Shown here piece after piece: positions 4,954 to 21,690 of a stretch of 64,000 nt of DNA (position 1 is the stretch's first letter; each line of letters opens with the position of its first letter). The notes below the pieces were generated by a model that was not told where the DNA came from, did no database searches, and worked only from the letters and a program-made list of their open reading frames with translations. The translations under genes were made by a program, and so were the position numbers. Source of the stretch: a virus (Duplodnaviria > Caudoviricetes); the IMG/VR virus record IMGVR_UViG_3300028591_000098, positions 1 to 64,000 of that record. One strand, 5' to 3'.

Positions 4954-5916
4954 TTAATAAATATCTTTTTTAATATTTTCATCAGGAATCCACTTAGTCA
5001 CACTTCCAATTGGTGCATCAATGGGCATACGTATTTTCTTATATCCTATTTCTTTCTGATAATAGTGATTCAGATCATCTTCCTTTTGATATGTATCATG
5101 TATATATGTCCAAAACCATTCTACTTCTTCTCCATTAGTAAGAATAGACTTATGATGGTGTTCTAAATCAAATAAATGAACAAGATGATTCCAAACCATC
5201 AAGTCATCAACATTTGTAAGATAAAAATGTTCAGGATTTGGACGATTTTTTGTTAGTTCATGGAATTGTACACCAAGTTTTCCATAATCATCTTCATTAT
5301 TATCCCACCTTTTAAAATGTTCCCAAACATAATCATCAATTAATGCATCATTATTGTAAAAATTTTTACATATCTTTAATACTTGTGGTCTAAGATACTC
5401 TTCCCAAGTTATTGTTTCAAAAGTATATCCTCGTTCATTATCAGCTAACTTAATTCGTACTTCATAATACTTAAGTAAGTCTTCTTTCTTTTGAATATCG
5501 AAGTCTTCAACAAACTGGCAGAATATATCAAGTGCAGATGTATAAATACGATTAAATGAAGTGATAGGAAATATAAACATAGGACCACATCCAAATTGCA
5601 AACATCTTTCAACTTCTCTATTTATATCATATGCAGTAAAGATAGAACGCTCTTCACTCATACGTCCATAACAATGTGAAGCAATATCACCAGCTCTCAT
5701 AGAAGCAGCTATGGTATGACGTCCAATACAATATCGATATGACATCCACATTGAATCTTCTTCATAACCACCAAAATCACTAAGCATTGTATTGTCTTTT
5801 ATAAACTTGTTGAAAAATGATACTACACAATTTTCTTTAGCTTTATTCATATCAATGCCAAAAGTCTTACTTCCAACTTTTACAGTGTTCTTTTTTGTAT
5901 CAAATACAATTTTCAT
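4954..5916 (-). CDS. Hypothetical protein
   Basis: 320-aa ORF starting 1 nt after upstream TAG. Confidence 0.7.
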   Translation of the reverse strand: MKIVFDTKKNTVKVGSKTFGIDMNKAKENCVVSFFNKFIKDNTMLSDFGGYEEDSMWMSYRYCIGRHTIAASMRAGDIASHCYGRMSEERSIFTAYDINREVERCLQFGCGPMFIFPITSFNRIYTSALDIFCQFVEDFDIQKKEDLLKYYEVRIKLADNERGYTFETITWEEYLRPQVLKICKNFYNNDALIDDYVWEHFKRWDNNEDDYGKLGVQFHELTKNRPNPEHFYLTNVDDLMVWNHLVHLFDLEHHHKSILTNGEEVEWFWTYIHDTYQKEDDLNHYYQKEIGYKKIRMPIDAPIGSVTKWIPDENIKKDIY

Positions 5917-5917
5917 A

Positions 5918-6742
5918 CTATAAATTATTTATGTCAATTTCTTCACAACAATATTTAGGTATATATTCTCTTGTTACAAATGCATCATAGTTAACCGAAG
6001 CAGGATCTTTATAGAATTTCAATTTGTTTTCATATTTATTTAAATCAATTCTTATAAGATGTATATTTTTTTTCTTAATTTCTCTTTGAACTTTTGATAA
6101 AGTTTCTTTTAATTTGTTTTTATCTTTATCACCAACAACAAATATATATCTTGGATAATATCTATCATTATCATGTCTTGGTACTAATCCATGATGATTC
6201 AATCTTTTCAATCCATTATCATTAACAAATCTATATATTATACCTTTACAATCATTATATATGTAATCTGTTTTTTCTTCTGGTTTGTAAGGCTCTATAT
6301 AAATCTCGTAATATTTTATATCATTATATTTACGATCTTCACAAAATGAAACATAATAATTATAAAAATTCAATAATGACTTAAATTCTTCATTATTCAC
6401 TAATTTATTATCAGAAATAAATAATGTTAATGAGTTTGTTTTTGTAACTGGATTTACTTCAACTCCATCATATAAATAATTTCCAAACTTTTTATTTATT
6501 TTTTCTAATAATTTTTCACTTTTATATGATTTTATAATATTTTCATAAATTATATTTTCTTGAATTATATCATATTTAGGTCCACGTTTATCATGCCATA
6601 ATAATCCTTCTATATTTTTAATATCGAAATATGATAATTCTTCATTCATCAAATCATTATATTCAATAATATCTTCTATATTAGGATTACTTAAGTGTTT
6701 AGGATATTTATATGTCTTAATAAAATTCTTTAATTCTTTCAT
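5918..6742 (-). CDS. Putative ADP-ribosyltransferase-fold (Tpt1/KptA-like) protein
   Basis: C-terminal IYRFV...LNHHGLVPR...YPRYIFV...LIRID...FYKDP...FVTREYIP pattern; N-terminus MKELKNFIK resembles the capsid tag. Confidence 0.45.
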   Translation of the reverse strand: MKELKNFIKTYKYPKHLSNPNIEDIIEYNDLMNEELSYFDIKNIEGLLWHDKRGPKYDIIQENIIYENIIKSYKSEKLLEKINKKFGNYLYDGVEVNPVTKTNSLTLFISDNKLVNNEEFKSLLNFYNYYVSFCEDRKYNDIKYYEIYIEPYKPEEKTDYIYNDCKGIIYRFVNDNGLKRLNHHGLVPRHDNDRYYPRYIFVVGDKDKNKLKETLSKVQREIKKKNIHLIRIDLNKYENKLKFYKDPASVNYDAFVTREYIPKYCCEEIDINNL

Positions 6743-6748
6743 ATATAA

Positions 6749-7009
6749 TTACCAAGGATATTTATTTTGTTTTTTCTTATCTTTATGTTCCCAAAGAAAT
6801 TTATCTGCTTCTTCCCACCAGAATTTTTTCATAGCATCTATAGCCTCTTCTTTAGTTGCATAATTATAATATGCTAAACAAATCTTAGGTCCAGTATATA
6901 TGCTCCAAGGTTTATCTCCTGCATTTCCTGCATCACTTTTACGAACTTCATATCGTTCATAAATTTTTTTACGAATTTGTTTCAAATAAAATGTTTTCAT
7001 GATGCGCAT
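6749..7009 (-). CDS. Hypothetical protein
   Basis: TAATG-coupled ORF. Confidence 0.55.
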   Translation of the reverse strand: MRIMKTFYLKQIRKKIYERYEVRKSDAGNAGDKPWSIYTGPKICLAYYNYATKEEAIDAMKKFWWEEADKFLWEHKDKKKQNKYPW

Positions 7010-7197
7010 TATATTAATTCAGATATATCACCTAAGAAAATACATACTTCTGTAGCATTTCCTTTACAATTATCCGATGATTCACCATAACCATTAGACC
7101 ACCCATATGTTAATTTTCCTTTAAAAGGAGTTCCATTAGCAAATATTACTTCAATTTCAGCTTCAGGATTAAATTCTAATAAATCTTTAATTTTCAT
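7009..7197 (-). CDS. Hypothetical protein
   Basis: TAATG-coupled ORF. Confidence 0.55.
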   Translation of the reverse strand: MKIKDLLEFNPEAEIEVIFANGTPFKGKLTYGWSNGYGESSDNCKGNATEVCIFLGDISELI

Positions 7198-8496: not shown

Positions 8497-9000
8497 ATGA
8501 AATCTATTTATAATATAATTAATGAAGCTTCTAATGAAAACAACATTATTGAAGCTTTAAAAAATGCATTAAAAGAAGAGATTAATGCATGGTATGGATA
8601 TATTATTGTTAAGGAATGGTTAGCTTGTCCTGAACGTAATAATATTGTAGAATTTTATGAGAAGACCGCAAAAGACGAATTAGAAGATCATGCATACTGG
8701 TTAATGAAACGTATTAGTCAATTAGGTGGTTCAATAAAGGATATATCATTAACTCCAAATTCATTAGATTCTGCTAATCATAAATATTTAGCGCCAGTTT
8801 GGAATAAAGATAAGATTAATGTTAAAAAATCATTAGAATTGAATATACAAAATGAAGAAGGAGCTATTGAAACATATAAAGAATTAGTACAAATGACTGA
8901 AAGTGTAGATCCAACTTCTAATTCAAAACTTAAGGAAATACTTGCAGATGAAGAAGAACATTTACAAGAATTAAAAGACTATTTAGATGATATTAAATGA
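8497..9000 (+). CDS. Ferritin-like (DpsL/bacterioferritin-type) protein with capsid-targeting-like tag
   Basis: Di-iron ligand pattern EEINAWYGY, DELEDHA, EEGAIETY, DEEEH; starts MKSIYNIINE. Confidence 0.85.
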   Translation: MKSIYNIINEASNENNIIEALKNALKEEINAWYGYIIVKEWLACPERNNIVEFYEKTAKDELEDHAYWLMKRISQLGGSIKDISLTPNSLDSANHKYLAPVWNKDKINVKKSLELNIQNEEGAIETYKELVQMTESVDPTSNSKLKEILADEEEHLQELKDYLDDIK

Positions 9001-10614: not shown

Positions 10615-10620
10615 TTGTAT

Positions 10621-11181
10621 ATGAAAAACTTACAAGACATAATACAAGAAAAACTTCAAATTGGATCTAAATCTAAAATTAGTCAATATAAATATCATCC
10701 AAAAGATAAAGGTGAGTTAAAACAATTATTAAAACTATTATTAGATGAACGTGGTAAAGATGCAAATTTAAATGATATTGATACATCTAAAATAACAGAT
10801 ATGTCTAATTTATTTGAAAATTTAAATCCTCATAACATAGATATATCTAAATGGGATGTATCAAATGTTACAAATATGTTATGTATGTTTTACGGATGTA
10901 AAAATTTTAATTCAGATTTAAGTAAATGGAATGTATCTAATGTTGAAAATATGTATAAGATGTTTTATAAATGTCGTAATTTTAATAGTGATTTATCAAA
11001 ATGGGACGTATCTAATGTTTTTAATATGAAATATATGTTTCTTGCATGTAAAAACTTTAATTGTGATTTATCTAATTGGGACATATCTAATATTAGATAT
11101 ATGGATTATATGTTTGATATTACATCATTAGAAAAAAATCCTCCTAAATGGTATATTAAATGGCATAAGAATAATATATGA
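10621..11181 (+). CDS. DUF285/BspA-type repeat protein, paralogue 1
   Basis: ATG at 10621 gives MKNLQDIIQEKLQIGSK; repeats FNSDLSKWNVSNVxNMxxMF. Confidence 0.85.
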   Translation: MKNLQDIIQEKLQIGSKSKISQYKYHPKDKGELKQLLKLLLDERGKDANLNDIDTSKITDMSNLFENLNPHNIDISKWDVSNVTNMLCMFYGCKNFNSDLSKWNVSNVENMYKMFYKCRNFNSDLSKWDVSNVFNMKYMFLACKNFNCDLSNWDISNIRYMDYMFDITSLEKNPPKWYIKWHKNNI

Positions 11182-11222: not shown

Positions 11223-11498
11223 ATGAAAAATATAATAAATTTTATTAAAGAGTCAGTATTCACTTATGATATTGATGAAATAGTTGATGCGATTTTAAAT
11301 GTAGCTTCAGATGAATTAGGAAATAAATTCGATAAATCATCACCAGAAGATATTTTAGATGCCGCATATGACGCAGGAGAATTTTCTGAATGTGGAGAGA
11401 TTGCAAGTATAGTTCAAGGTGATGAAGATGAAATTGCCGATTTCATTATGGATAATAGAAAAGAAATATTGAAAAAGATAAAAGATTCAAAGAAATAA
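11223..11498 (+). CDS. Tagged acidic hypothetical protein
   Basis: Starts MKNIINFIKE. Confidence 0.65.
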   Translation: MKNIINFIKESVFTYDIDEIVDAILNVASDELGNKFDKSSPEDILDAAYDAGEFSECGEIASIVQGDEDEIADFIMDNRKEILKKIKDSKK

Positions 11499-11526
11499 AA
11501 ATGAGGAGTTTAAGACTCCTCATTTT
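11498..11526. terminator. Bidirectional terminator
   Basis: aaaatgaggagt-ttaag-actcctcatttt between convergent genes. Confidence 0.75.
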
Positions 11527-12799
11527 CTGTTGTTTGTTTTATATTGTTTTGATAAATTGCATTTGATATATTTGGTCTTTCTTTATTCCAATTATTTAAT
11601 ATATTAATTGCTTGAGAAACTATAAATTTTGCTGTACCTACGGGGACATTTTGACCAATCTTAGCTAAATTACTTTCATCACCATATAATGTAAAATCAT
11701 AAGGCATACCCATAAATGAAAGATATTCTCGTATAGTATATATTCTATTCTCAGTTAGATGTAACATATTTGGCATAGATCTAAATTGTATAGAAGGCAT
11801 AAAATCTTTTACATATTGAATATCATCTCCGTAATAATTAAGACCTAATGATTTCTTATACTTAATATGTTCAAAATATTTTAGTGTACGTTCTTTATTC
11901 TCTATAGGATATTTTTCATCCTTCTTTACATATTCAATAAGCTCATCTATTAATGAATTACGATTTATATAATCCATAATTGATCCATTAATGAAATTTT
12001 TCCAATCATTTCCAAATTTATTATAAATAAAATCTAATGTATAATAATTGTACACTCCAGTCTTCACAGGTATCTCTTGAGTCAATCCTTTAGGTATTTT
12101 ATTTAAATAGTCTTTCAGTGACACGGAGGCCGCTTCAAATGACATCAACGGTGGATTCTCGATTTTATTGTCAGTTATATGTTTTATAAATATAACAAAT
12201 GTACGAGGACGTTTCTGACAGTTATGATGTAAAACAGTATCAGTCTTATAATAAAGAATTGAATATCCCTTATCTAACGCTAATTGATTAAACCATGCAC
12301 GCAATTCATCTCCTCTACTTCCCATTAAGGTAGGAGCATTTTCAAATATAAAAATTTTTGGCTTTATCATACTAAGTGTATAATTTGTCATCCATTTCAT
12401 ATTACAATTACGTGACTCTTTAGTTTCTTTACTTGCTTTTGTAACCATCGATATACCTGAACATACTGGTACACCTACAACTATATCAATATTATCATAA
12501 TCTGGTGTTTGTTCTTCATTATCTTTTGAAATAAATGGATTCATATAATTAACATCAATATCAAACATTCCATTATGTATAGTGTAATATGGAACTTCTC
12601 TATTATGTTTTTCAAGATATTTAATTAAGTTATATTCATTACCTACTCCGGCCATTTCATTAGTCTTTTTAGAATATGTAACATCACATAAACCATCAAA
12701 TGACATTATCCATTCGGCTGGATGTCCAATTGCTTCTTCTGCACCTAAATACATCCCGCCCGTAAGCGGTTGTATACATGCCCATTTTATATTATTCAT
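11510..12799 (-). CDS. C5-cytosine DNA methyltransferase-family protein (atypical motifs I and IV)
   Basis: PLTGG (I), GVPVCSG (IV), FENAP (VI), QKRPRTF (VIII), RIYTIREYLSFMGMP (IX), IGQNVP (X). Confidence 0.85.
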   Translation of the reverse strand: MNNIKWACIQPLTGGMYLGAEEAIGHPAEWIMSFDGLCDVTYSKKTNEMAGVGNEYNLIKYLEKHNREVPYYTIHNGMFDIDVNYMNPFISKDNEEQTPDYDNIDIVVGVPVCSGISMVTKASKETKESRNCNMKWMTNYTLSMIKPKIFIFENAPTLMGSRGDELRAWFNQLALDKGYSILYYKTDTVLHHNCQKRPRTFVIFIKHITDNKIENPPLMSFEAASVSLKDYLNKIPKGLTQEIPVKTGVYNYYTLDFIYNKFGNDWKNFINGSIMDYINRNSLIDELIEYVKKDEKYPIENKERTLKYFEHIKYKKSLGLNYYGDDIQYVKDFMPSIQFRSMPNMLHLTENRIYTIREYLSFMGMPYDFTLYGDESNLAKIGQNVPVGTAKFIVSQAINILNNWNKERPNISNAIYQNNIKQTTENEES

Positions 12800-14081
12800 A
12801 TTTCTTATTGTCTTCTATATATTTTTCAAACATTTGCTTAGATTCATCTAACATATAATTATTAAATTTATTATATATAGATTTACGTTGATGATATTTC
12901 ACTTTACAAAATAAATGATCATTACTAATTAATTGTTCCACTCTTTCTTTAAATTGTTCAGGATTATCAACATACATAAATTCTTTTAAAAAATCATCAT
13001 CTGTATATTGTTTCTTTGAATCATAAGGTGTAAATACAAAAGGAATTATATCAGCCAACATTAAATCAAAATAACGTGGACTTATAAAATCATCAAATGT
13101 AGAAGGATTTGCTATAATAAATGAAGTATAAGAATCTTTACATATCTCTTCAAACAATTTATTATATTCTATTTCTTTAAACTTATCTGCATTTTTAAAT
13201 TCATCTGAAAAATGTCCCTTTGCTTCAATAACTTTTATAGGACCATCAAGAATGTTATAAAATGCTAATGTATGTTTGACTCTAAAATCATCATGTTTAA
13301 TATATCCATGATATTCACTTTGATATTTACGATTTAAAGGATATTCTTTAAATTTATCTTCAAGATTACAATTAACACCTTGCCAATTATATACATTAAA
13401 CTTACACCAATATTTTGGTTTTGTTACTATATTAGGTGAACCAAATTTTAATTTTATTCTTTCATTATAATAGTGTTCATAATCATTACCACAATGAGCA
13501 ACAATTGTATTATCAAAACAATTATGTAATAAACCAGATTCTTGATATTCTAAATAAAGTTTTGCATCAGATGTTTCTTTATTATATTTATAAGGTTTTG
13601 GTTTTTGATCTTCAGATTTATAAAGACGTTTCTCTACCATAAGTGCAGGATTAATTGTCATAAAATCAGGATCATCTTGAATAGTATAATAATGACCATC
13701 CCCATGTGTTTTATACCATTCAACTAATCTATTACAAATGGAAAAATAAAAATCTCCTAATACACCACCAAAAAATACTAATACATGTTGTTTACAAAAT
13801 ATATCATTAATATTTAAATCATTAAAAAGATTAATTCTATCAATACCAAAAATTATTGAATCTTTATCAAAATATTCTTCATTAATTTTCTTTTCTTTTA
13901 TTGATGAACTAATTATATATACTTTATCATATCCAACATATTTTTCAAGATAATCTTTATATGTTTTCATGCCAGCATTCTTAATTCCCATTTTAGTAAA
14001 TGAAATAGGAGAAGTAATACCAATAATAGCAGCGATCTTTCCATGACCGCTGCCTTTTTCTAAATTATTTAATTGCTGCAT
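12792..14081 (-). CDS. DNA beta-glucosyltransferase-like GT-B enzyme
   Basis: C-terminal DDFISPRYFDLMLAD...YDSKK...YVDNPEQFKERVEQL resembles the T4 BGT C-terminus as I recall it; operon context. Confidence 0.6.
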   Translation of the reverse strand: MQQLNNLEKGSGHGKIAAIIGITSPISFTKMGIKNAGMKTYKDYLEKYVGYDKVYIISSSIKEKKINEEYFDKDSIIFGIDRINLFNDLNINDIFCKQHVLVFFGGVLGDFYFSICNRLVEWYKTHGDGHYYTIQDDPDFMTINPALMVEKRLYKSEDQKPKPYKYNKETSDAKLYLEYQESGLLHNCFDNTIVAHCGNDYEHYYNERIKLKFGSPNIVTKPKYWCKFNVYNWQGVNCNLEDKFKEYPLNRKYQSEYHGYIKHDDFRVKHTLAFYNILDGPIKVIEAKGHFSDEFKNADKFKEIEYNKLFEEICKDSYTSFIIANPSTFDDFISPRYFDLMLADIIPFVFTPYDSKKQYTDDDFLKEFMYVDNPEQFKERVEQLISNDHLFCKVKYHQRKSIYNKFNNYMLDESKQMFEKYIEDNKKYE

Positions 14082-14086
14082 ATTTA

Positions 14087-15355
14087 TTAATCTTTAAAAC
14101 AATCATCTATTAATTTATTTGCTATTGCTTTTGCATCACAATTTGCTTTAAATGCATTAAATATTCTATTGCGAAGTTCATCATATTTTTCAGGATTATT
14201 CATAAGTTCATCCATTTGTGATAAACATTCATCAATATTAGACAAATCCTTCTTAAGGAATATTCCCAATCCTAATTCCAATGCGGTTTTGCCTGTTGAT
14301 GTAGCAGTATTATCATACATATGACATGCATTTCCTGCATTCCAATCAAGCAATGGTATAGAACCCATTTCAATCATTTCAAAAATAGAATATTCAAAAT
14401 CATCCCCATAACAACCATCATTCTTAAGATTGAAGAAATCACATCCAAATGCTGATTTTGCAACTATCTGTAATCCTTCATCTCTCTTATATGCATCAAA
14501 TACATAACACCAACCTTTTTTACGTTCAGGTGTATCTAACATTGGATCATCTAAAGATATATTATTAGCAATTCTCCATTTCTTATCTGATGCCATTATG
14601 CATGCAGTTGAAGGAATACGATTACCATCCTTATCAAATGAATAAATCAAATCAGGAATTGTAGATACATTAATAGTTCTTTTAATACCACGCATTTCTA
14701 ATTCATAATCATGTGCATAAAAACTATCTCTACCTCTTAATAGACGTGTTGGATCCTTAAATCCAGAATGACGTCCAAGATATGTAATACGTCTTAATTT
14801 TTCTGTTGCAGGAATCCATTGTTCTTTAACTTTATCATCATAAACATGTGGTAATAACAAATGAACAAAACGTTTGTCAAACTCTTCTTGACCACATGCT
14901 AATGCAATTTTTTCTGCAACCCTTGCTTTAGGTGCAAATGTTATAATCTTATCAAATGCAAGCCAAAACTCTGAATTATGAAGTAATGGCCCATAATATG
15001 CAGCAAACCCACTTGGATTATGATCATTACATACAATTACTTTTCTAGTTGTAATTTTATTCATGAGCATATCCATCCATAAGTTACGATATTTCTCATC
15101 GGCTTTCTTTTCCATAATTGAATTGATTATAACCAAATCTGCATCATTTAAATGCTTAACTGTTTCATCGGAATAATCATATTCAACTGCTTCTGGAATA
15201 TCTTGTGTTCCATTCTTCATTTGTGCTTTTTCATGAGCTTTTACATAAATAATTTCCACATCATGTCCAGCCAATTTCAAACCCTTATTCAATTCAATTA
15301 CGTAACGAGTTACTCCTGAACCCTCAATACGTGCCATTAATTGTATTATTTTCAT
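14087..15355 (-). CDS. DNA alpha-glucosyltransferase-like GT-B enzyme
   Basis: N-terminus MKIIQLMARIEGSGVTRY...GHDVEIIY resembles T4 AGT; YLGRHSGFKDP; FEYSIFEMIEMGSIP. Confidence 0.75.
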   Translation of the reverse strand: MKIIQLMARIEGSGVTRYVIELNKGLKLAGHDVEIIYVKAHEKAQMKNGTQDIPEAVEYDYSDETVKHLNDADLVIINSIMEKKADEKYRNLWMDMLMNKITTRKVIVCNDHNPSGFAAYYGPLLHNSEFWLAFDKIITFAPKARVAEKIALACGQEEFDKRFVHLLLPHVYDDKVKEQWIPATEKLRRITYLGRHSGFKDPTRLLRGRDSFYAHDYELEMRGIKRTINVSTIPDLIYSFDKDGNRIPSTACIMASDKKWRIANNISLDDPMLDTPERKKGWCYVFDAYKRDEGLQIVAKSAFGCDFFNLKNDGCYGDDFEYSIFEMIEMGSIPLLDWNAGNACHMYDNTATSTGKTALELGLGIFLKKDLSNIDECLSQMDELMNNPEKYDELRNRIFNAFKANCDAKAIANKLIDDCFKD

Positions 15356-15383
15356 ACTTTATATAATTTGTTTAATTTAAATT

Positions 15384-15412
15384 AATATAGAAATTTAAAA
15401 TATTTTATTCAT
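15384..15412 (-). promoter_or_regulatory. Recurrent phage promoter motif, internal to modification cluster
   Basis: Minus strand ATGAAT-N17-TATATT with C before -10. Confidence 0.45.
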
Positions 15413-15980
15413 TTAATGCATCTTCCCAAAATTCTGAATATAAATGTATAGTATCTGCATTCCAATATATTTTGACATCATCAATTTTATAAAAAAGTTT
15501 TAATACTTTTAATATTTTATCAATAACTGTTTTATGCCATATCAAATCTGTATCAAATTCTATAACATCATTACTTCTCATATGTACAGTATATTCTAAA
15601 TTGTAGTGATCACCCGAAACTTTAATTAAAAACACATGAATATACATTGTACAAATAAATGCCGGTAAATCATATTCATTAACATCACCCATTATCAATA
15701 CTGCTTGTCTTGAATTAGGATTATCTATTAATCTTTTAATACATTTACTAAATTGATTATTTCTCTCTAATATTGGATCATAATTTTCCTCATACCATTG
15801 TGGGGTCATCCGTTCTAATGGTGGAATGCTTTCAAAAATCTTATCTTTATTTACTTCAAAAATAACATTACGTAATTCTACATATTTAGTACCATTAAAA
15901 CAATTATAACCGGTTTCTTTTATATTATTATTTTTTAATTCTTTCAATAATAAATTTTTAATATCTTCTGTTTTATACAT
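15405..15980 (-). CDS. Shortened thymidylate-synthase-fold protein (second gp42-like paralogue)
   Basis: NPNSRQAVL, FICTMY, MRSNDVIEFDTD, YWNADTIHLY; only 191 aa. Confidence 0.75.
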   Translation of the reverse strand: MYKTEDIKNLLLKELKNNNIKETGYNCFNGTKYVELRNVIFEVNKDKIFESIPPLERMTPQWYEENYDPILERNNQFSKCIKRLIDNPNSRQAVLIMGDVNEYDLPAFICTMYIHVFLIKVSGDHYNLEYTVHMRSNDVIEFDTDLIWHKTVIDKILKVLKLFYKIDDVKIYWNADTIHLYSEFWEDALNE

Positions 15981-15983
15981 TCA

Positions 15984-16754
15984 TTATTTTTTATTGTTTT
16001 TTAATGATTTGTTAAGAGAATTTAAGAATTCATAATGCCCATCAATATTTTGTTTAGTAATAGGATCATTCAATATATTAAAATGTCTTTCATAAATATG
16101 TAATGAACCAGCATTCCAATACATATCACCTGATACTATATGTTTATTCATTTTTTTCGATAAATAATCTGCTAATTCATTTTGAACATAATTCATCCAC
16201 ATAGCGTCGTTATTAAAACCAAATATTGCATCATTTGAGCGAAAATTAACTATACAATCTAATAATGTATTTTTTTCATCATATTCATTTAAGAAATACT
16301 GAACATTTTGACAACACATAAAATCATGCATTCCATTTTTATTATATTCTTGTTGCATGGAAGGTCGATTATAAATCATAATAGCTTCTCTTGTATGTGG
16401 ATCATCTATTAAATGTTGAGCACAATTTTCAAATTGAGAACCATTTTCTTTAGAATAAATACACCATCCATAATTAGAATTTATAAATCCATCTGGAGTT
16501 GCACAAGCTTTCCACATTTTAGGAGCACCTCCAGGAATATCGTTAACGTTTAATGATTGCGATTTATACCAATCTAATTCTTTATGATAATATTCAATAT
16601 TTGGTTCACGAATAATCCATGGTTTATCGACTTCAAAATGTGCATTTTGAATTTCTAATGTTTTTGATTGTTGAACATTATTTCCAATTATTCTAAATTC
16701 ATTTTTCTCATATTTATCGAGAAAAATATAAAAAATATCTTTTGTGATTAACAT
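15984..16754 (-). CDS. dCMP hydroxymethylase (T4 gp42-like)
   Basis: INSNYGW, DPHTREAIMIYNRPSMQ, DFMCC, FRSNDAIFGFNND (Asp at the dCMP-specificity position), WNAGSLHIYERHF. Confidence 0.85.
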   Translation of the reverse strand: MLITKDIFYIFLDKYEKNEFRIIGNNVQQSKTLEIQNAHFEVDKPWIIREPNIEYYHKELDWYKSQSLNVNDIPGGAPKMWKACATPDGFINSNYGWCIYSKENGSQFENCAQHLIDDPHTREAIMIYNRPSMQQEYNKNGMHDFMCCQNVQYFLNEYDEKNTLLDCIVNFRSNDAIFGFNNDAMWMNYVQNELADYLSKKMNKHIVSGDMYWNAGSLHIYERHFNILNDPITKQNIDGHYEFLNSLNKSLKNNKK

Positions 16755-16756
16755 AT

Positions 16757-17299
16757 TTAACTATTAATAAATTTCCAAGCTTCATTATATATATCTTCTA
16801 CATTTCTAAATGTATCATTATCATTGATATATATGATTTTTTTCTTTAATTTTGACTTTTCAAAAATTGTCCTAAAACGATTTTGTTCAATTTCAATTTT
16901 AGAAATATTTCCTTGAGATAATGATTTATTATCATCATTTTTTAATAACAAACTATCCGATGTAGATAATAATTGTATATAATATGCATCAATATTGTTT
17001 TGTAAATATATATCATCAATTTCTTGTATAATATCTATTGCATCTTTATCAGATATGTTACGATATAAACAACCATAAACATACTCACCATAATGACTTC
17101 TATTTAATATTACCACATCTGTATCATATACTTTATTTACTATTGCATATGCATATCCTCTAAATATAGTATTTTGTATATATTTATTTTCAGGTTTAGT
17201 ATAATGAATATTTGTAACTGTTAAAAAATTTTCTGAAAGTTTATTGATTAATGTATTTTTTCCACAATTATCAGGGCCTTCAATAATTATTAATTTCAT
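16757..17299 (-). CDS. dNMP/thymidylate-kinase-like P-loop kinase
   Basis: MKLIIIEGPDNCGKNT; ILNRSHYGEYVYG; start at internal Met 17299. Confidence 0.8.
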   Translation of the reverse strand: MKLIIIEGPDNCGKNTLINKLSENFLTVTNIHYTKPENKYIQNTIFRGYAYAIVNKVYDTDVVILNRSHYGEYVYGCLYRNISDKDAIDIIQEIDDIYLQNNIDAYYIQLLSTSDSLLLKNDDNKSLSQGNISKIEIEQNRFRTIFEKSKLKKKIIYINDNDTFRNVEDIYNEAWKFINS

Positions 17300-17377
17300 A
17301 CATATTAAATACATTTATTTATGTTATTATTAAATATAGAAATAACTAATTATAATTTTTTTATATTTTTTAACAAT

Positions 17378-18994
17378 ATGACTAACAAAAAACAATTTAT
17401 TGATTACAGTAATATTCAAACTGTAGATGAACTTAAGAGCACATTTAGTGAACAAATTAAGGAAAATTCTAATAACATAGATAAAAATATAATTAATGAA
17501 GAACAAAAAGATGATAATAAAAATTCATCTTATTTCTTTAAAAATATTCTTTTCTTTACTAATGATCGTGATGCTGAATCTAATAAAACATTAAAAAATT
17601 TAGAAAAAGCAGTTAAAGGTAAAGGTGTTGAAATTTTCCCATTTGTTGCCGAAGAAGTTGATTATAAAGCCACCGATGATAAAATAGAATGGAGTGACAA
17701 TAAAAACAAATATAAGGTTGATGAACAATCTAATGTTGATACAATTGTCATAACACGTCTTGGTGTTCAAGAATCAGAAGAATGTATGGAACTTATTAAG
17801 GAACTTCAAGACTGGGGTTTCTTTGTAATCAATCCTATTCAATCAGCCAAAAAAGCTTCAAACAAATATCAGTCTTCAGTATTAATGGAACGTTATGAAA
17901 TTCCTCAACCTCGTTTCACACTTATATCTAAAAATGATATATCTAAAGGTGAAGAATCTCTTAATAAAAAACTTAAGGTTATATATCCTGATGTAGGTAA
18001 AGATCCTGAAGAAGATAAGAAAAAAGAATATGTAGTAAAAATTCTTGATGGTCATGGTGGAACTGGTGTAACAATGCAAACTGGTAAGACAATTCTTTCT
18101 ATGCTTCAAATGGTGTTTGCTGTTGATGAAGAACGTGAATTATTAGTACAAAAGAAAGAAGAAGCAGATGGTGGTGATATTCGTGTCCATGTATTGACTA
18201 TGAGAACTCATCAAAAAATTCTTGCACAAATGAAACGTAAAAAGATTGGTGGTGACTTCCGTTCTAATGTATCACTTGGTGCCACAGCTGAAAAGGTTAC
18301 ATTGACACCAGAACAAGAAGAGATTGCACTTAAGGTTGCTAAGATTTCTGGTATGCCTTGGTGTGCCGTTGATATTATGCCACTTGTTAAAGGTTCTAAT
18401 CCAGAAATTGGTGATAATGTAGTTCTTGAATATAATGCTTCTCCAGGTACTGATGGTATATCTGAAGTTATAGAAGATAACTTTATGGAGATTCTTCTTA
18501 ATGAGATTAATGATATTAATGAATTAGTATTGGCTCCTAAAGCTATTGGTTATCTTGAAAATGTAAAATTCACTATGGATAATGATGATGAATTTGAATT
18601 TGAAGCTAAGTTCGATACAGGTAATGGGGCTAAAGCTTCTACAATAGGTTGTGATTCAGTTGACTATAAAGGTAATTTGGTTATCGCAACTATTGAAGGT
18701 AAGAAATATCAATTTAAGAAAGCTGGTGAATCAAGAGCTATTGTTGGTCAAGTAACAGAACCTCGTACAACTGTTATTATTCCATGTATACAAGTTGGTT
18801 CTCGTAAACTTCTTGATGTTGAATTTGCATTAGTTGATAATCGTAAGAAAAAACAAAAGGTTCTTATTAATAGAGATATAATGGCGCGTATGGCTTATCA
18901 AATTAATCCTGCTAAGAAACATATTCTTGAAGATGATTTAGCTTATAGTTTCAAGGAAGAACTTGAAAAGAAGAATTCTACAAAAGATAAATAA
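17378..18994 (+). CDS. RimK-like ATP-grasp ligase fused to retropepsin-like aspartic protease (RimB-like)
   Basis: VVKILDGHGGTGV, GDIRVHV, DFRSNVSLGA, AVDIM, VLEYNASPG; C-terminal AKFDTGNG ... VLINRD. Confidence 0.85.
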   Translation: MTNKKQFIDYSNIQTVDELKSTFSEQIKENSNNIDKNIINEEQKDDNKNSSYFFKNILFFTNDRDAESNKTLKNLEKAVKGKGVEIFPFVAEEVDYKATDDKIEWSDNKNKYKVDEQSNVDTIVITRLGVQESEECMELIKELQDWGFFVINPIQSAKKASNKYQSSVLMERYEIPQPRFTLISKNDISKGEESLNKKLKVIYPDVGKDPEEDKKKEYVVKILDGHGGTGVTMQTGKTILSMLQMVFAVDEERELLVQKKEEADGGDIRVHVLTMRTHQKILAQMKRKKIGGDFRSNVSLGATAEKVTLTPEQEEIALKVAKISGMPWCAVDIMPLVKGSNPEIGDNVVLEYNASPGTDGISEVIEDNFMEILLNEINDINELVLAPKAIGYLENVKFTMDNDDEFEFEAKFDTGNGAKASTIGCDSVDYKGNLVIATIEGKKYQFKKAGESRAIVGQVTEPRTTVIIPCIQVGSRKLLDVEFALVDNRKKKQKVLINRDIMARMAYQINPAKKHILEDDLAYSFKEELEKKNSTKDK

Positions 18995-19009: not shown

Positions 19010-20326
19010 ATGGAATCAAATATAGATAAATTTAAACGTATAATAGATTTAAAATTAGAGATACTTAATAAATCTAAGGAATTAAAGAAAGATTCTTATC
19101 AATCTAAATATAGAAAATTAACTGGATTGTTAGTTAATGAAAATATATTTAATAATGATATATCAGATAATTTATTAAATTGGTTATTCTGGCATATTCC
19201 TGGAGGAAATAAAATGAATGACAATAATAAAGAATCGGCATCATTAAGATTATCTATAACTAAAGCATCTAATAATAATCCATTATATATAGATGATAGA
19301 AAATTTAATAAATATGATATTATTAGAGCAAAAACTCATACAAATGAAGAATTGACAGACGACAATAAATATCTTGATGTAAATAATGATGGTGTTATAA
19401 CAGAAGAAGATATTGAAATGTTAAGAAATGCTCTTTGGCAAGATTCAAAATATAAGAATATATCATTTAGACCTGGATTATCTAAAACAACTAATAAGAT
19501 TGAAGAATTTGTGTATATTGAATTAAAAACAACATCAACTGAATATACATTAATAATAAATGATGTTAAATTAGATAATTCTAAAATTTTATGTTTACCT
19601 GATGATGTATTATCTTATAAAGTAATATCAGGTAATTATATAGAAGAAGGTGAAATTAATGTTAATGAAATTGATGATAATGATAATAATATTATAGTTA
19701 TTGAAATAAAACAAGATATTGCTAGTGATACCAAAAAAATTACAGATGTTTTATTAAACTCAGGTGAAAAGGTATTACAAGAAGATATTACTATAACAAG
19801 AGTAGCAGGAGGTTTGTTCCAAAATAACGATACTATAATAAATTTAAATGGTCATAAAATAACATCAAATAGTAGTTCTAGTGCAACTATATTTGTTAGA
19901 GGTACTGCAAAATATACAATTGATGGAGAAGGAACTATTGAAGATTTATCTACACAAGGACAAGGTGTAATATGGACAACAACTAAAGATTCAAAAGTTA
20001 TAATAAATAATGGTGAATTTATTGCACATACCCCTGCAGGACAATGTATTTATTGTCAAATTGGTACTATAGAAATAAATGGTGGTGTATTTAAAGGTGA
20101 AGTGGCATCTACAACAAATGATCATAGATATTTATTAAACTGTCTTGATGCTAATTATAAAAATGGTACTGCAAAAATAATTGTTTCTGGTGGTACATTC
20201 TATGGATTTGATCCAGGTAATAATGCAGCAGAAGGTCCTAATACATCATTCTTAAAAGAAGGATATATATCACAAGAAATAGGAGAAGAAAATGGAATAA
20301 AAATATATCAAGTAATTAAAGAATAA
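19010..20326 (+). CDS. Putative virion protein with EF-hand/dockerin-like loop and C-terminal beta-helix-like region
   Basis: DVNNDGVITEEDI; INLNGHKIT, IINNGEF, INGGVF, VSGGTFYGFDP. Confidence 0.55.
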   Translation: MESNIDKFKRIIDLKLEILNKSKELKKDSYQSKYRKLTGLLVNENIFNNDISDNLLNWLFWHIPGGNKMNDNNKESASLRLSITKASNNNPLYIDDRKFNKYDIIRAKTHTNEELTDDNKYLDVNNDGVITEEDIEMLRNALWQDSKYKNISFRPGLSKTTNKIEEFVYIELKTTSTEYTLIINDVKLDNSKILCLPDDVLSYKVISGNYIEEGEINVNEIDDNDNNIIVIEIKQDIASDTKKITDVLLNSGEKVLQEDITITRVAGGLFQNNDTIINLNGHKITSNSSSSATIFVRGTAKYTIDGEGTIEDLSTQGQGVIWTTTKDSKVIINNGEFIAHTPAGQCIYCQIGTIEINGGVFKGEVASTTNDHRYLLNCLDANYKNGTAKIIVSGGTFYGFDPGNNAAEGPNTSFLKEGYISQEIGEENGIKIYQVIKE

Positions 20327-20517: not shown

Positions 20518-21260
20518 TGAGAAATTTGAAAGACTTTATATTAGAATATAAAGAAAGACATAATAATTCTTTTGATTATGAAGGAATAAAAAATGTGATA
20601 CAAAATTGTAAACCTTCATTTTTTGGAAAAAATGTTTGTTTAGATATTTTGTGGAGGCCTGAGATAATATTTTCAAAGGAAAATGGATGGGAACAAAATA
20701 AAAAAACTAAATTATATAAATATAATGGAATAATTTTAAGTGAATCTCCAGTTATGTTTATTGATTTTTATGCAGAGAAAAAAATATTTAAAAAAGATAT
20801 TATTGAAGGTTATATAAGTTGGATATTACCAAATAAAATAAATAATGATGATACTAATTGTGATGAATTAGAAAAATTCTTAAAATCAAAAGCTAATGAT
20901 AAAAATAAAGAAAGAATAAAATTCACATCATATGAAGAACTTGAAAAATATCTTAAAGAAATAGAAGACATTATTAATAAACATAATACAAAATGTGATA
21001 ATAATGAACCAACTTATTTATTTTTTGATAAAAGCGAAGCAACATTAAATGCTCAATTTAAAAAACATCAATATGAATTAATAAGTTGTGATGAAAAAAT
21101 ATCAAGTTTAAATAAAGAATTAGAAGATATCAAAAAGGCGGCAGAAGGTTCGGATGTAGATTTAACACCCCTTATAGATATAACCATTGAAAAAATTGAA
21201 TATTTTAAAAACTCAAAGAAAATTTTAGAAGATGAAAAACTTACAAGATATAATACATGA
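20517..21260 (+). CDS. Tagged hypothetical protein
   Basis: Starts MRNLKDFILE. Confidence 0.65.
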   Translation: MRNLKDFILEYKERHNNSFDYEGIKNVIQNCKPSFFGKNVCLDILWRPEIIFSKENGWEQNKKTKLYKYNGIILSESPVMFIDFYAEKKIFKKDIIEGYISWILPNKINNDDTNCDELEKFLKSKANDKNKERIKFTSYEELEKYLKEIEDIINKHNTKCDNNEPTYLFFDKSEATLNAQFKKHQYELISCDEKISSLNKELEDIKKAAEGSDVDLTPLIDITIEKIEYFKNSKKILEDEKLTRYNT

Positions 21261-21690
21261 GAAACTTCAGATTGGTAGTAAAACAAAAGTTAGTTCATAT
21301 AAATATCATCCTAAAAATAGAAAAGAATTAATTGAAGTAATTAATCCAATTTTAAAAGAAAATGGATTTGAATGTGATTTAAATAATATAGATACATCAC
21401 AAATTACGGATATGCATGATTTATTTATAAATTGTCAATTTAATGGTAATATATCTGATTGGGATGTTTCTAATGTAAAGGATATGTCTTGGATGTTTCA
21501 TGGTGCGGGATTTAATGGAGATATATCTAATTGGGATGTTAGTAATGTTGAAGATATGTCAGAAATGTTTGAATTTAGTGAATTTAATCAAAATATAGAT
21601 AATTGGAAAGTATCAAAAGAAACATTAATGAGAGATATGTTTAGTGATTGTCCTTTAGAAAAAAATCCCCCTAAATGGTATAAAAACTAA
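21232..21690 (+). CDS. DUF285/BspA-type repeat protein, paralogue 2
   Basis: MKNLQDIIHEKLQIGSK; FNGNISDWDVSNVKDMSWMF repeats; ends PLEKNPPKWY. Confidence 0.85.
   Translation: MKNLQDIIHEKLQIGSKTKVSSYKYHPKNRKELIEVINPILKENGFECDLNNIDTSQITDMHDLFINCQFNGNISDWDVSNVKDMSWMFHGAGFNGDISNWDVSNVEDMSEMFEFSEFNQNIDNWKVSKETLMRDMFSDCPLEKNPPKWYKN

Follow-up and report, generated by a model that had tools for sequence, protein, structure and literature searches.

Six co-directional genes on the minus strand (P1 to P6; positions 11510–17314 in the ORF listing) of a 64,000-nucleotide stretch of phage DNA (the window) form a single operon, which probably makes DNA decorated with sugar on 5-hydroxymethylcytosine (hmC) by the T-even route, with the roles of P3 and P6 proposed below; homology and gene context point to the pathway as a whole. 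The core of this operon is a T-even-type glycosyl-hmC pathway, a kind already reported by metagenome mining, and beside this known type of core the operon holds two conserved extras, P3 and P6. The features identified are as follows:

17349–17376, minus strand: promoter-like site TTGTTA-16-TATAAT, upstream of the P1 kinase gene within a divergent spacer of 78 bp
16757–17314, minus strand: P1, P-loop nucleotide kinase of the YorR/thymidylate-kinase type, presumed hm-dCMP kinase (185 aa; phrog_761)
15984–16754, minus strand: P2, predicted dCMP hydroxymethylase, T4 gp42 orthologue (256 aa; PDB 1b49)
15405–15980, minus strand: P3, short TS-fold, gp42-derived paralogue without the folate-binding segment (191 aa; PDB 1b49, 2.5e-8)
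14087–15355, minus strand: P4, AGT-like GT-B putative DNA glycosyltransferase (422 aa; Pfam PF11440)
12792–14081, minus strand: P5, BGT-like GT-B putative DNA glycosyltransferase (429 aa; structure match to T4 BGT)
11510–12799, minus strand: P6, divergent C5-cytosine-methyltransferase-fold enzyme of a phage-only clade (429 aa; PF00145)
11497–11527, both strands: bidirectional hairpin terminator with a 13-bp stem, at the convergent operon end

A previous reading of this DNA from sequence alone had described a six-gene minus-strand cluster, a condensed T4-like set for hmC glycosylation extended by two enzymes outside the T4 pathway; the ORFs lie exactly at the positions it gave, all six folds were verified, and its gene identities were upheld. 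The likelier start of P1 is Met6 at 17299, the coordinate at which that reading had ended the cluster. The spacings from P1 to P6 are, in order, 2, 3, 49, and 5 nt, followed by an 8-nt overlap, so that the description "mostly 2–5 nt gaps or short overlaps" is right with the exception of the one 49-nt gap. The signs of an operon are this close packing of the genes, together with a single promoter-like site and a single terminator hairpin. The promoter-like site is the top sigma-70-like match in the region (10/12), but promoter-like matches overall are not enriched in the AT-rich DNA of this region, and the site is therefore a positional hint only; terminator-like sites numbered four in the region versus 0.9 expected. 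The six-gene cluster recurs at ~95% identity on two other contigs (L001 and L011; 95% for the latter) and is rearranged in distant phages, which excludes a chance arrangement.

The source is an uncultured large phage, probably from the rumen. The IMG/VR record (163 kb; completeness ~64%) has a GC content of ~25%, the flanks of the window encode DUF285 and dockerin domains, and a near-complete relative with the same core (GenBank ONIZ01000001.1) was binned as uncultured Firmicutes bacterium isolate RUG343, a rumen MAG; the previous assignment to a probable Bacteroidota phage is, given these three observations, unsupported. Among 15 T4 proteins searched against the record by tblastn, only gp42 and AGT found a match, while 13, including BGT and the replication set, did not, indicating that this phage is not a close relative of T4.

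By sequence comparison, P2 is a full gp42 orthologue, for which formation of 5-hm-dCMP is predicted. It matched PDB 1b49 over residues 30–228 (E 2.3e-59), is 46.5% identical to T4 gp42 (tblastn), and keeps the equivalents of gp42 E60, W82, Y96, D145, C148, R168, S169, D171, and D179. Published markers of the hydroxymethylase type are D145 (acidic, at the E. coli L143 position), Asp rather than Asn at the E. coli D169 position, and D179 (PMC13326640); P2 carries all four of the catalytic Cys148, the cytosine-specifying Asp179, D145, and an Asp at the E. coli D169 position (i.e., D171). P1 is presumed from gene context to act as the hm-dCMP kinase; it matched the phrog_761 thymidylate kinase (8e-12), and its top PDB match was SPbeta YorR (2axp; 1.3e-3). 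P1-like kinases adjoin gp42-like genes in many loci, and a nucleotide kinase adjoining a TS homologue has been described in clusters studied by experiment, for DLP3 gp78, RB69 gp45, and RL38J1 gp214 (PMC13326640). A phmmer search of P1 against the PDB (E up to 1) retrieved no similarity to the dNMP kinase T4 gp1 (1dek/1del), only YorR 2axp and spurious P-loop matches; P1 groups with TMPK/YorR-like kinases.

P4 is classified as AGT-like by its Pfam, PHROG, and PDB matches together with a full-length BLASTP alignment, i.e., PF11440 (AGT; N-terminal part only, 32.8 bits versus a cut-off of 25), phrog_2888 (2e-35, residues 1–410), PDB 1xv5 (1.2e-10), and T4 AGT (23% identity over residues 1–422, E 3e-15). 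P5 had zero matches in Pfam, PHROG, NCBIfam, and PDB sequence searches and belongs to a family without a Pfam, PHROG, or NCBIfam model. The top Foldseek match of its AF2 model (pLDDT 92.7) was T4 BGT (E 1.2e-15), to which VIA-align superposed 332 of 351 residues (Z 27.2, rmsd 3.3 Å), and the runner-up family was AGT (Z 18); as modelled, the fold of P5 is BGT-specific, above the level of a generic GT-B, which bears out the earlier beta-GT call although no sequence library could make it. Profile and structure searches against T4 gp42, AGT, and BGT thus matched P2, P4, and P5, respectively, with P5 matching by structure. P5 is ~16% identical to T4 BGT, and hhalign of the P5 family profile with T4 BGT gave a probability of 84% (E 8e-6) in an alignment confined to the final 84 columns, pairing R336 and D339, both invariant in the P5 family, with the UDP-binding R269 and E272 of BGT. 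The invariant YYxxQD136 of P5 (YYTIQD) is similar to YYLFTD100 around the catalytic Asp100 of BGT, as a motif resemblance only.

In the pathway that we propose, P2 would turn dCMP into 5-hm-dCMP using methylene-tetrahydrofolate, P1 would phosphorylate 5-hm-dCMP, and host NDP kinase and the phage polymerase would incorporate hm-dC into DNA. After replication, P4 and P5 would add sugar to the hydroxymethyl group. No sugar-nucleotide genes were found within the six-gene operon or elsewhere in the window, suggesting that the donor would be a host NDP-sugar, most simply UDP-glucose, which is our default guess. P6, finally, retains all residues that an enzyme needs to flip out a cytosine and react covalently at its C5.

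P3 is a conserved yet dispensable gp42 duplicate. Its AF2 model (pLDDT 90.8) had T4 dCH as its top Foldseek match (E 5.5e-12; TMq 0.77), and ~28 short P3 homologues have in common an invariant Cys, an R-S-x-D motif, and the specificity Asp (D179). P3 lacks gp42 residues ~66–93 (the folate-binding segment, with the PKIW motif) as well as the C-terminal tail, and across the whole family E60 is replaced by Q or S and D145 by A or T. P3 is missing from two close relatives (L085 and L005) in which the rest of the core is kept (e.g., kinase-gp42-P6-AGT-BGT in L005), and is therefore not essential to the pathway. The protein may have kept the ability to bind cytidine nucleotides and to attack C6, while the usual binding of folate would be impossible; P3 might pair with P2 or regulate it, or might act on dCMP or hm-dCMP without folate.

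P6 matched PF00145 with 66.1 bits (cut-off 22), in an alignment that begins at profile position 51, and its profile matched M.HaeIII and M.HhaI at ~1e-13; the family has >570 members, and the clade is known from phages only. Conservation was scored over 40 diverse family members, among which G14 G15, C113, E153 N154, Q195 R197 R199, and Q383 N384 V385 are invariant, R357-E358 (motif IX) are invariant or nearly so, and N54 and E/D55 are nearly invariant. P6 thus has the catalytic Cys, ENV (VI), QxRxR (VIII), RE (IX), and GNxV (X) of M.HhaI and M.HaeIII (PF00145), including the motif X Asn, as well as their fold. Unlike these enzymes, it has QPLTGG in place of the canonical SAM-binding FxGxGG of motif I (QPL(T/I)GG in the family, with Phe changed to Gln in 33 of the 40 members and the first Gly to Leu in 39), PVCSG in place of PCQ in motif IV throughout the family, and a variable insert preceding motif II, of which the Asn-Glu/Asp is conserved; its clade also lacks a restriction partner. 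Because motifs I and IV are altered family-wide, the cofactor or chemistry of P6 may differ.

P6 would most likely methylate cytosines that escape replacement; this is the least certain step of the pathway. Methylation of unreplaced C is the simplest reading because no dCTPase or TET was found: neither the record nor two relatives with 94–97% completeness had a match to dUTPase_2, MazG, or PRA-PH dCTPase domains, a gp56-type dCTPase was likewise not found, and TET/JBP (PF12851) had no match in the 163-kb record (E up to 1) and none in five distant P6-like loci, all of which are fragments. As the record is ~64% complete, a dCTPase or TET could be encoded in the remainder. Complete substitution by hm-dC, as happens in T4, would leave an ordinary C5-methylase without substrate in phage DNA, which counts against the proposal.

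The neighbourhoods of P6-like genes bear on whether P6 and P3 belong to the pathway. Of 17 P6-like genes located on contigs 100 kb or longer, 9 have a gp42-like gene within 10 kb, versus 2.0 expected (P ~4e-5, uncorrected for relatedness), and every such TS is of the cytosine hydroxymethylase type. P6 sits at the end of the glycosylation cluster, a position that is conserved while the sugar modules separating it from the core differ among relatives; two contigs (L012 and L013) have the order kinase-gp42-P3-[pentose-type sugar module]-P6, with a divergent RimK neighbour as here. Alternatively, P6 could be an ordinary anti-restriction methylase that acts on its own and P3 a decaying duplicate, both mere neighbours of a T4-like set for hmC glucosylation; this would fit the dispensability of P3 in close relatives, the ~55 of 58 fetched gp42-like loci without a P6-like gene nearby, and the roughly two thirds of P6-like loci without a TS in the fetched flank. 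We consider this unlikely, however, given the enrichment of TS genes near P6-like genes, the cluster-end position of P6 that is kept despite the exchange of sugar modules, and the confident fold of P3, whose family spans down to 38% identity with catalytic and nucleotide-binding residues invariant.

A further alternative is that P6, perhaps along with P3, performs covalent Cys-C6 chemistry on hmC in DNA instead of methylating it, such that the final base is not glucosyl-hmC; P6 might exchange or remove the hydroxyl, form hmC at residual C, or present flipped bases to the glycosyltransferases. In 2009, Liutkeviciute et al. reportedly found that, in vitro, C5-methyltransferases without SAM can attach hydroxymethyl groups or take them off and can join nucleophiles to hmC. 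This possibility is favoured by the family-wide remodelling of motifs I and IV next to an invariant Cys and invariant motifs VI, VIII, IX, and X, by the failure to find, in the 163-kb record and the five fragment loci, a TET that would give a methylase a downstream use, by the variable sugar modules, and by the neighbours of P6-like genes, which directly adjoin AGT-like genes in nine loci (median 4 nt) and lie close to u422 genes in 20 loci (median ~1 kb); u422 is only weakly linked to BGT (pairwise E 1e-4 across 77 residues; hhalign not significant). On the other hand, the Asn-Glu of motif II and the Asn of motif X, which are SAM contacts in canonical enzymes, are conserved, so that SAM binding by P6 is plausible. 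In addition, other phage C5-methyltransferases with similar epimerase/GT/polymerase neighbourhoods are proven methylases (PMC8256090), the likeness being one of neighbourhood. A non-methylase role of P6 is, on balance, improbable. The same low probability is given to the combined reading in which P6 acts as a non-methylase on hmC, or puts hydroxymethyl or another group on residual C, and P3 catalyses a second reaction, independent of folate, on dCMP or hm-dCMP; if this were true, these phages would have a so far undescribed cytosine derivative in their DNA.

A product of the RB69/DLP3 type, glycosylated 5-hydroxycytosine, with one TS-fold enzyme being a flavin-dependent dCMP hydroxylase, is very improbable: it would account for two TS-fold genes, for a P3 that lacks the folate segment and is short, as is AfhB, the dCMP hydroxylase of phage HY126 (217 aa; 9iqu, among the P3 fold matches), and for the likeness of the L012/L013 sugar module to the RB69/DLP3 arabinose module, but the diagnostic of 5hodCMP synthases, Asn at the E. 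coli ThyA Asp169 position (D169N; PMC13326640), is absent, with Asp (R-S-N-D) in both P2 and P3 and Asp also in 27 of 27 other TS-fold ORFs in fetched P6-like loci, P3 is nearest in sequence to gp42 rather than AfhB, and the identity of P2 to the T4 hydroxymethylase is that given above. Where the sequence-only reading had left open glycosylated hmC or a different base, glycosylated hmC is therefore the best reading, by homology only, and a 5-hydroxycytosine-type base is unlikely.

The preferred hmC pathway resembles that of T4 (gp42, gp1, gp56, alpha-gt, beta-gt) in its gp42 orthologue, its AGT-like and BGT-like GT-B enzymes, its nucleotide kinase, and the production of hm-dCMP before replication with sugar transferred afterwards. 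It differs in the YorR/TMPK-like rather than gp1-like kinase, in the additional P3 and P6, in the gp56-type dCTPase (not found in the ~64%-complete record), and in having all genes in one operon; the T4 genes had been called dispersed, which largely holds, except that genes 42 and beta-gt are adjacent in T4. The ThyS-associated GT-B clusters of Pyle et al. (bioRxiv 10.1101/2023.12.21.572611) likewise combine a TS homologue and a GT-B within 10 kb on viral contigs, with methyltransferases and epimerases as frequent neighbours. However, those authors pair C5-MT with 5mYOX/TET in a post-replicative route, whereas here a C5-MT-like gene lies in a pre-replicative ThyS operon with no TET detected in the record, and P3 has no counterpart there, a short TS paralogue not being described. 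The C5-MT/TET (5mYOX)/GT clusters of Burke et al. 2021 (PMC8256090) also have a C5-methyltransferase beside DNA glycosyltransferase, epimerase, and polymerase genes, a kind of neighbourhood seen at distant P6-like loci (~30% identity), but hmC here would come from a gp42 orthologue, and TET/JBP was not found in the record. The clusters of RB69, DLP3, and RL38J1 (PMC13326640) share with this operon a TS homologue, an adjoining YorR/TMPK-like kinase, and GT-B transferases; they differ from it in D169N and sugar-nucleotide genes, both absent from the window, and have no C5-MT. A module comparable to theirs is present in L012 and L013, consisting of a nucleotidyltransferase-kinase fusion, a HAD phosphatase, and a sugar-phosphate enzyme.

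The window represents the first 64 kb of one 163,395-bp IMG/VR virus record (GC ~25%; CheckV completeness ~64%). Six ORFs (185, 256, 191, 422, 429, and 429 aa) were identified on the minus strand at 11510–17314; from P1 to P6, they are separated by 2, 3, 49, and 5 nt, followed by an 8-nt overlap:

P1, 16757–17314, minus strand: P-loop nucleotide kinase of the thymidylate-kinase/YorR type, with no homology to T4 gp1
P2, 15984–16754, minus strand: match to T4 dCMP hydroxymethylase (gp42), E 2.3e-59
P3, 15405–15980, minus strand: short gp42-derived paralogue with a thymidylate synthase (TS) fold
P4, 14087–15355, minus strand: similar to T4 alpha-glucosyltransferase (AGT) in Pfam (scoring over the threshold), PHROG, and PDB searches and in full-length BLASTP to T4 AGT
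P5, 12792–14081, minus strand: similar to T4 beta-glucosyltransferase (BGT) by predicted structure
P6, 11510–12799, minus strand: C5-methyltransferase fold, PF00145, 66 bits

The top-scoring predicted promoter-like site for the operon strand (17376–17349) is located in the short divergent spacer upstream of these genes, and a bidirectional hairpin with a 13-bp stem (11497–11527) is found at the convergent end. The operon is flanked by genes encoding ferritin-like, DUF285, divergent RimK-like ATP-grasp, and dockerin-containing proteins; as none of these is related to nucleotide chemistry, the unit represents a discrete six-gene operon, which is genuine and conserved.

The core of this operon is textbook. 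P2 shares 46.5% identity with T4 gp42 (tblastn) and retains the equivalents of Glu60, Trp82, Tyr96, Asp145, Cys148, Arg168, Ser169, Asp171, and Asp179, so that the gp42 assignment made in the sequence-only reading stood when searched against T4. When read with the specificity markers defined for TS-fold enzymes at the E. coli N177, L143, and D169 positions (PMC13326640), the Asp of P2 at the N177 position points to dCMP as the probable substrate, its acidic residue at the L143 position suggests that the methylene intermediate would be hydrated, and its Asp, rather than Asn, at the D169 position argues against a 5-hydroxycytosine synthase. The true start of P1 is most likely its sixth codon (17299; MKLIIIEGPD), a position that agrees with where YorR, its structural relative, begins. 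A nucleotide kinase adjoining a TS homologue recurs in many of the loci fetched here, and kinases beside a TS homologue have been tabulated for DLP3 gp78, RB69 gp45, and RL38J1 gp214 (PMC13326640). P2 and P3 are the only TS-fold genes of the 163-kb record, in which a search for ThyA-type TS found none; a dCMP deaminase gene is located outside the window (139386–139853 of contig C1 of the whole record, G000).

The predicted core works like the T-even 5-hydroxymethylcytosine (hmC) system, to which P2 belongs, and glycosyl-hmC is, with high confidence, the predicted product class. Glycosylated hmC is the classic protection of phages from restriction and CRISPR nucleases and also a source of enzymes for epigenetic sequencing. 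A thymine/5-hydroxymethyluracil pathway was rejected because both TS-fold proteins carry Asp at the pyrimidine-specificity position; a 5-hydroxycytosine pathway was rejected because the D169N marker is missing and the sequence of P3 is closer to gp42 than to AfhB. Only two of 15 T4 proteins tested, gp42 and AGT, had a match in the record. The operon is a compact, probably self-sufficient version of such a system from a non-T4 lineage, which makes its reconstitution in E. coli feasible; of particular value are the P5 family, the conserved folate-less P3, and the P6 clade.

Both glycosyltransferase (GT) calls of the sequence-only reading were borne out, that of P4 by its agreement with AGT in Pfam, PHROG, PDB, and BLASTP searches and that of P5 by structure. 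P5 presented zero matches in Pfam, PHROGs, NCBIfam, and PDB sequences; the NCBIfam search contributed nothing further. An AlphaFold2 model built with its 48 metagenomic homologues (pLDDT 92.7) had T4 BGT as its top structural match (Foldseek E 1.2e-15; VIA-align Z 27.2, rmsd 3.3 Å, 332/351 residues), with a score exceeding those of AGT and generic GT-B enzymes by 9 Z units. In a profile comparison, the invariant R336 and D339 of P5 align with the UDP-binding R269 and E272 of BGT, and the invariant YYxxQD136 resembles the BGT motif YYLFTD100. P5 thus represents a BGT-like family that sequence libraries do not recognise; no description of this family was found in the literature searched.

P3 is no remnant. 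Its family (~28 proteins of 182–205 aa, with identity down to 38%) presents invariant Cys110, Arg91, Arg135-Ser136-x-Asp138, Glu141-Phe142, Asp145 (the cytosine-specifying position), Trp62-Tyr63, and Asn66-Tyr67. The closest structure to the P3 model (pLDDT 90.8) is T4 dCMP hydroxymethylase (E 5.5e-12, TMq 0.77), the family profile matches PDB 1b49 at 1.6e-16, and a protein atlas search with P3 returned dCMP hydroxymethylase clusters only. When aligned with gp42 and P2, the family lacks gp42 residues ~66–93 (the PKIW segment lining the folate site) and the C-terminal tail; Glu60 is not retained, and Asp145 (gp42 numbering) is replaced by Ala or Thr. These losses and retentions suggest that P3 probably retains the ability to bind a cytidine nucleotide and to attack C6, and that classical use of methylene-folate is unlikely. 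P3 was seen only directly after a full-length gp42 (in the window and loci L011, L012, and L013) and is missing from close relatives that keep the kinase, gp42, and P6 (L085 and L005), indicating that it is an accessory. It may be a partner or regulator of P2, or it may carry out a separate reaction of its own; our confidence in any role is low. No description of a short folate-less TS paralogue was found in the literature searched.

P6 belongs to a large family (>570 clusters at 90% identity; 638 representatives at 50%). Its match to PF00145 begins only at profile position 51. In an alignment of 40 diverse members, the catalytic Cys113, Glu153-Asn154, Gln195/Arg197/Arg199, and Gln383-Asn384-Val385 are invariant, while Arg357-Glu358 as well as Asn54 and Glu/Asp55 (likely motif II) are nearly so. 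The family profile recovers M.HaeIII, M.HhaI, and the catalytic domains of DNMT1 at 1e-13 to 1e-16; together with the invariant residues, these matches indicate that the enzyme is still fully equipped for covalent catalysis on a flipped cytosine. Motif I, however, reads QPL(T/I)GG rather than the canonical FxGxGG, and motif IV reads PVCSG rather than PCQ; the cofactor loop is thus rebuilt in a manner common to the whole family. The one long homologue examined for a GT part (P0288, 768 aa) showed no GT similarity, so that fusion of a GT to the methylase-like domain found no confirmation.

A total of 79 viral loci with P6-like genes were fetched, and all neighbouring ORFs were clustered.

Protein families neighbouring P6-like genes in the 79 loci
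gp42-type TS: 25 loci
NAD-dependent sugar epimerase/dehydratase: 24 loci, median distance 406 nt
u422, an uncharacterised family of ~420–450 aa with a weak BGT-like C-terminal motif: 20 loci
P1-like kinase: 14 loci
sugar-1-phosphate nucleotidyltransferase: 11 loci
AGT-like GT: 9 loci, median distance 4 nt
5-hmdU-DNA-kinase-like protein: 6 loci, adjacent

Among P6-like genes located on contigs of 100 kb or more, 9 of 17 had a gp42-like gene no further than 10 kb away, as compared to 2.0 expected if a single gene were placed at random (P ~4e-5, with no correction for relatedness). All of these TS genes belonged to the cytosine hydroxymethylase type. The similarity of u422 to BGT involves the C-terminal motif only (pairwise E 1e-4; hhalign not significant), and two proteins found beside distant P6-like genes, u249 and u334, had no Pfam or PHROG identification. 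One cultured phage, Pseudoalteromonas phage vB_Psh_XG4 (PP712099.1), carries gp42, a nucleotidyltransferase, u422, and a P6-like gene. P6 represents a large, phage-only methyltransferase-fold clade that is a consistent companion of hmC-sugar clusters. ThyS-linked clusters make up ~28% of GT-B hits in metaviromes, and methyltransferases are listed among their neighbours (bioRxiv 10.1101/2023.12.21.572611); no description of a QPLTGG clade systematically present in ThyS-type (pre-replicative) clusters without TET was found in the literature searched.

The order of genes differs among relatives. L005 presents kinase-gp42-P6-AGT-BGT. The most informative loci are those of L012 (193 kb) and L013 (410 kb, 97% complete), two relatives in which the divergent RimK-like neighbour is also present. 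In both, kinase-gp42-P3 is followed by a ribulose-phosphate 3-epimerase, a nucleotidyltransferase-kinase fusion (554 aa), a GT2, u422 (449 aa), a HAD-like protein, and P6; the sugar genes lying between the core and P6 have thus been swapped for another module, with AGT and BGT replaced (L012:10598–15776; L013:10611–15739), while the position of P6 is unchanged. This pentose-type module resembles the arabinose module of RB69 and DLP3 but, unlike published arabinosyl-5-hydroxycytosine systems, is linked to a TS of the hydroxymethylase type (with Asp at the D169 position), a combination that would predict pentosyl-hmC. In the 364-kb phage L003, a 29%-identical P6 is paired with a 30%-identical P5, and a gp42-like gene is located ~100 kb away; at L003:1278–4528 (minus strand), the pair adjoins a GT2/GT92-like protein and a fusion of a TupA-type ATP-grasp with a TOD1/MUCI70 glycosyltransferase-like domain.

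In phages, C5-methyltransferases have been shown to open MT/TET/GT pathways by methylating GpC-type sites (PMC8256090), and some distant P6-like loci present a similar neighbourhood of epimerase, GT, and polymerase. The operon differs from this pathway in that no TET/JBP dioxygenase is detectable and hmC is supplied before replication; such a route was rejected, as TET/JBP was found neither in the record nor in five distant P6-like records (all five of them fragments). No dCTPase of the gp56, MazG, or PRA-PH type was detected in the ~64%-complete record, and none of the MazG or PRA-PH type in relatives 94–97% complete; replacement of cytosine may therefore be incomplete, leaving a methylase substrate. 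The simplest reading, to which we give somewhat less than an even chance, is that P6 methylates the cytosines left by incomplete replacement. It is unlikely, in our view, that P6 performs a different reaction on hmC or residual cytosine, even though the altered forms of motifs I and IV, the close linkage of P6-like genes to GTs, and the lack of a detected TET speak for it. Overall, confidence in any role for P6 is low. If P6 is an ordinary methylase, cytosine in these phages is protected both before and after replication; if it is not, it represents new DNA chemistry. Six-gene reconstitution would be a cheap probe of P3 and P6 and could reveal new cytosine chemistry.

The phage had been read from sequence as a probable Bacteroidota phage, and here the evidence points elsewhere. 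The 410-kb relative corresponds to GenBank ONIZ01000001.1, deposited as "uncultured Firmicutes bacterium isolate RUG343" and classified by CheckV as a 97%-complete virus; in a single-protein scan of genome contigs, it was the sole match. RUG stands for the Rumen Uncultured Genomes (Stewart et al. 2018); judging by their IMG sample numbers, the closest contigs presumably come from rumen metagenomes as well. Several DUF285 ("Mycoplasma" repeat) proteins flank the operon (window 10615–11181 and 21232–21690, both plus strand; L012:18199–19608), as does a 438-aa dockerin-containing protein (window 19010–20326), genes that fit a Firmicutes-type host better than Bacteroidota. Together with the 25% GC and the RUG343 bin, they point away from Bacteroidota as the probable host.

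A gene transcribed divergently from the operon encodes a RimK-like ATP-grasp protein of ~557 aa (window 17321–18994, plus strand; L012 counterpart at 5373–7082, minus strand); the related phages of 193 kb and 410 kb have retained this divergent neighbour, and a ferritin/rubrerythrin-like gene (window 8497–9000, plus strand) is present within the phage genome. A protein with a 5-hmdU DNA kinase helical domain (PF18723) is encoded immediately upstream of P6-like genes in L130 (8556–10001), L131, L138, L146, and L147, and ~three genes upstream of the one in L136; three of the loci (L130, L138, and L147) also had a cytosine-specific TS. This arrangement is a candidate 5-hmC DNA kinase route. In the 380-kb record of L002 and L089 (G002), a PF00303 search gave a gp42-like match with three in-frame TAA stops (C1:301883–302587); ORF calling at the same place found an open 239-aa gene with all markers present (L089:19626–20345), so that the stops may be confined to the extended part of the match, and a match artefact, a broken gene, or recoding is possible. 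The annotated ThyA of Cyanophage S-TIM54 (L010:5105–5947), 2 kb from a distant P6-like "DNA methylase", carries Asp where pyrimidine specificity is set and Cys at the L143 position, suggesting that it may act on dCMP rather than dUMP.
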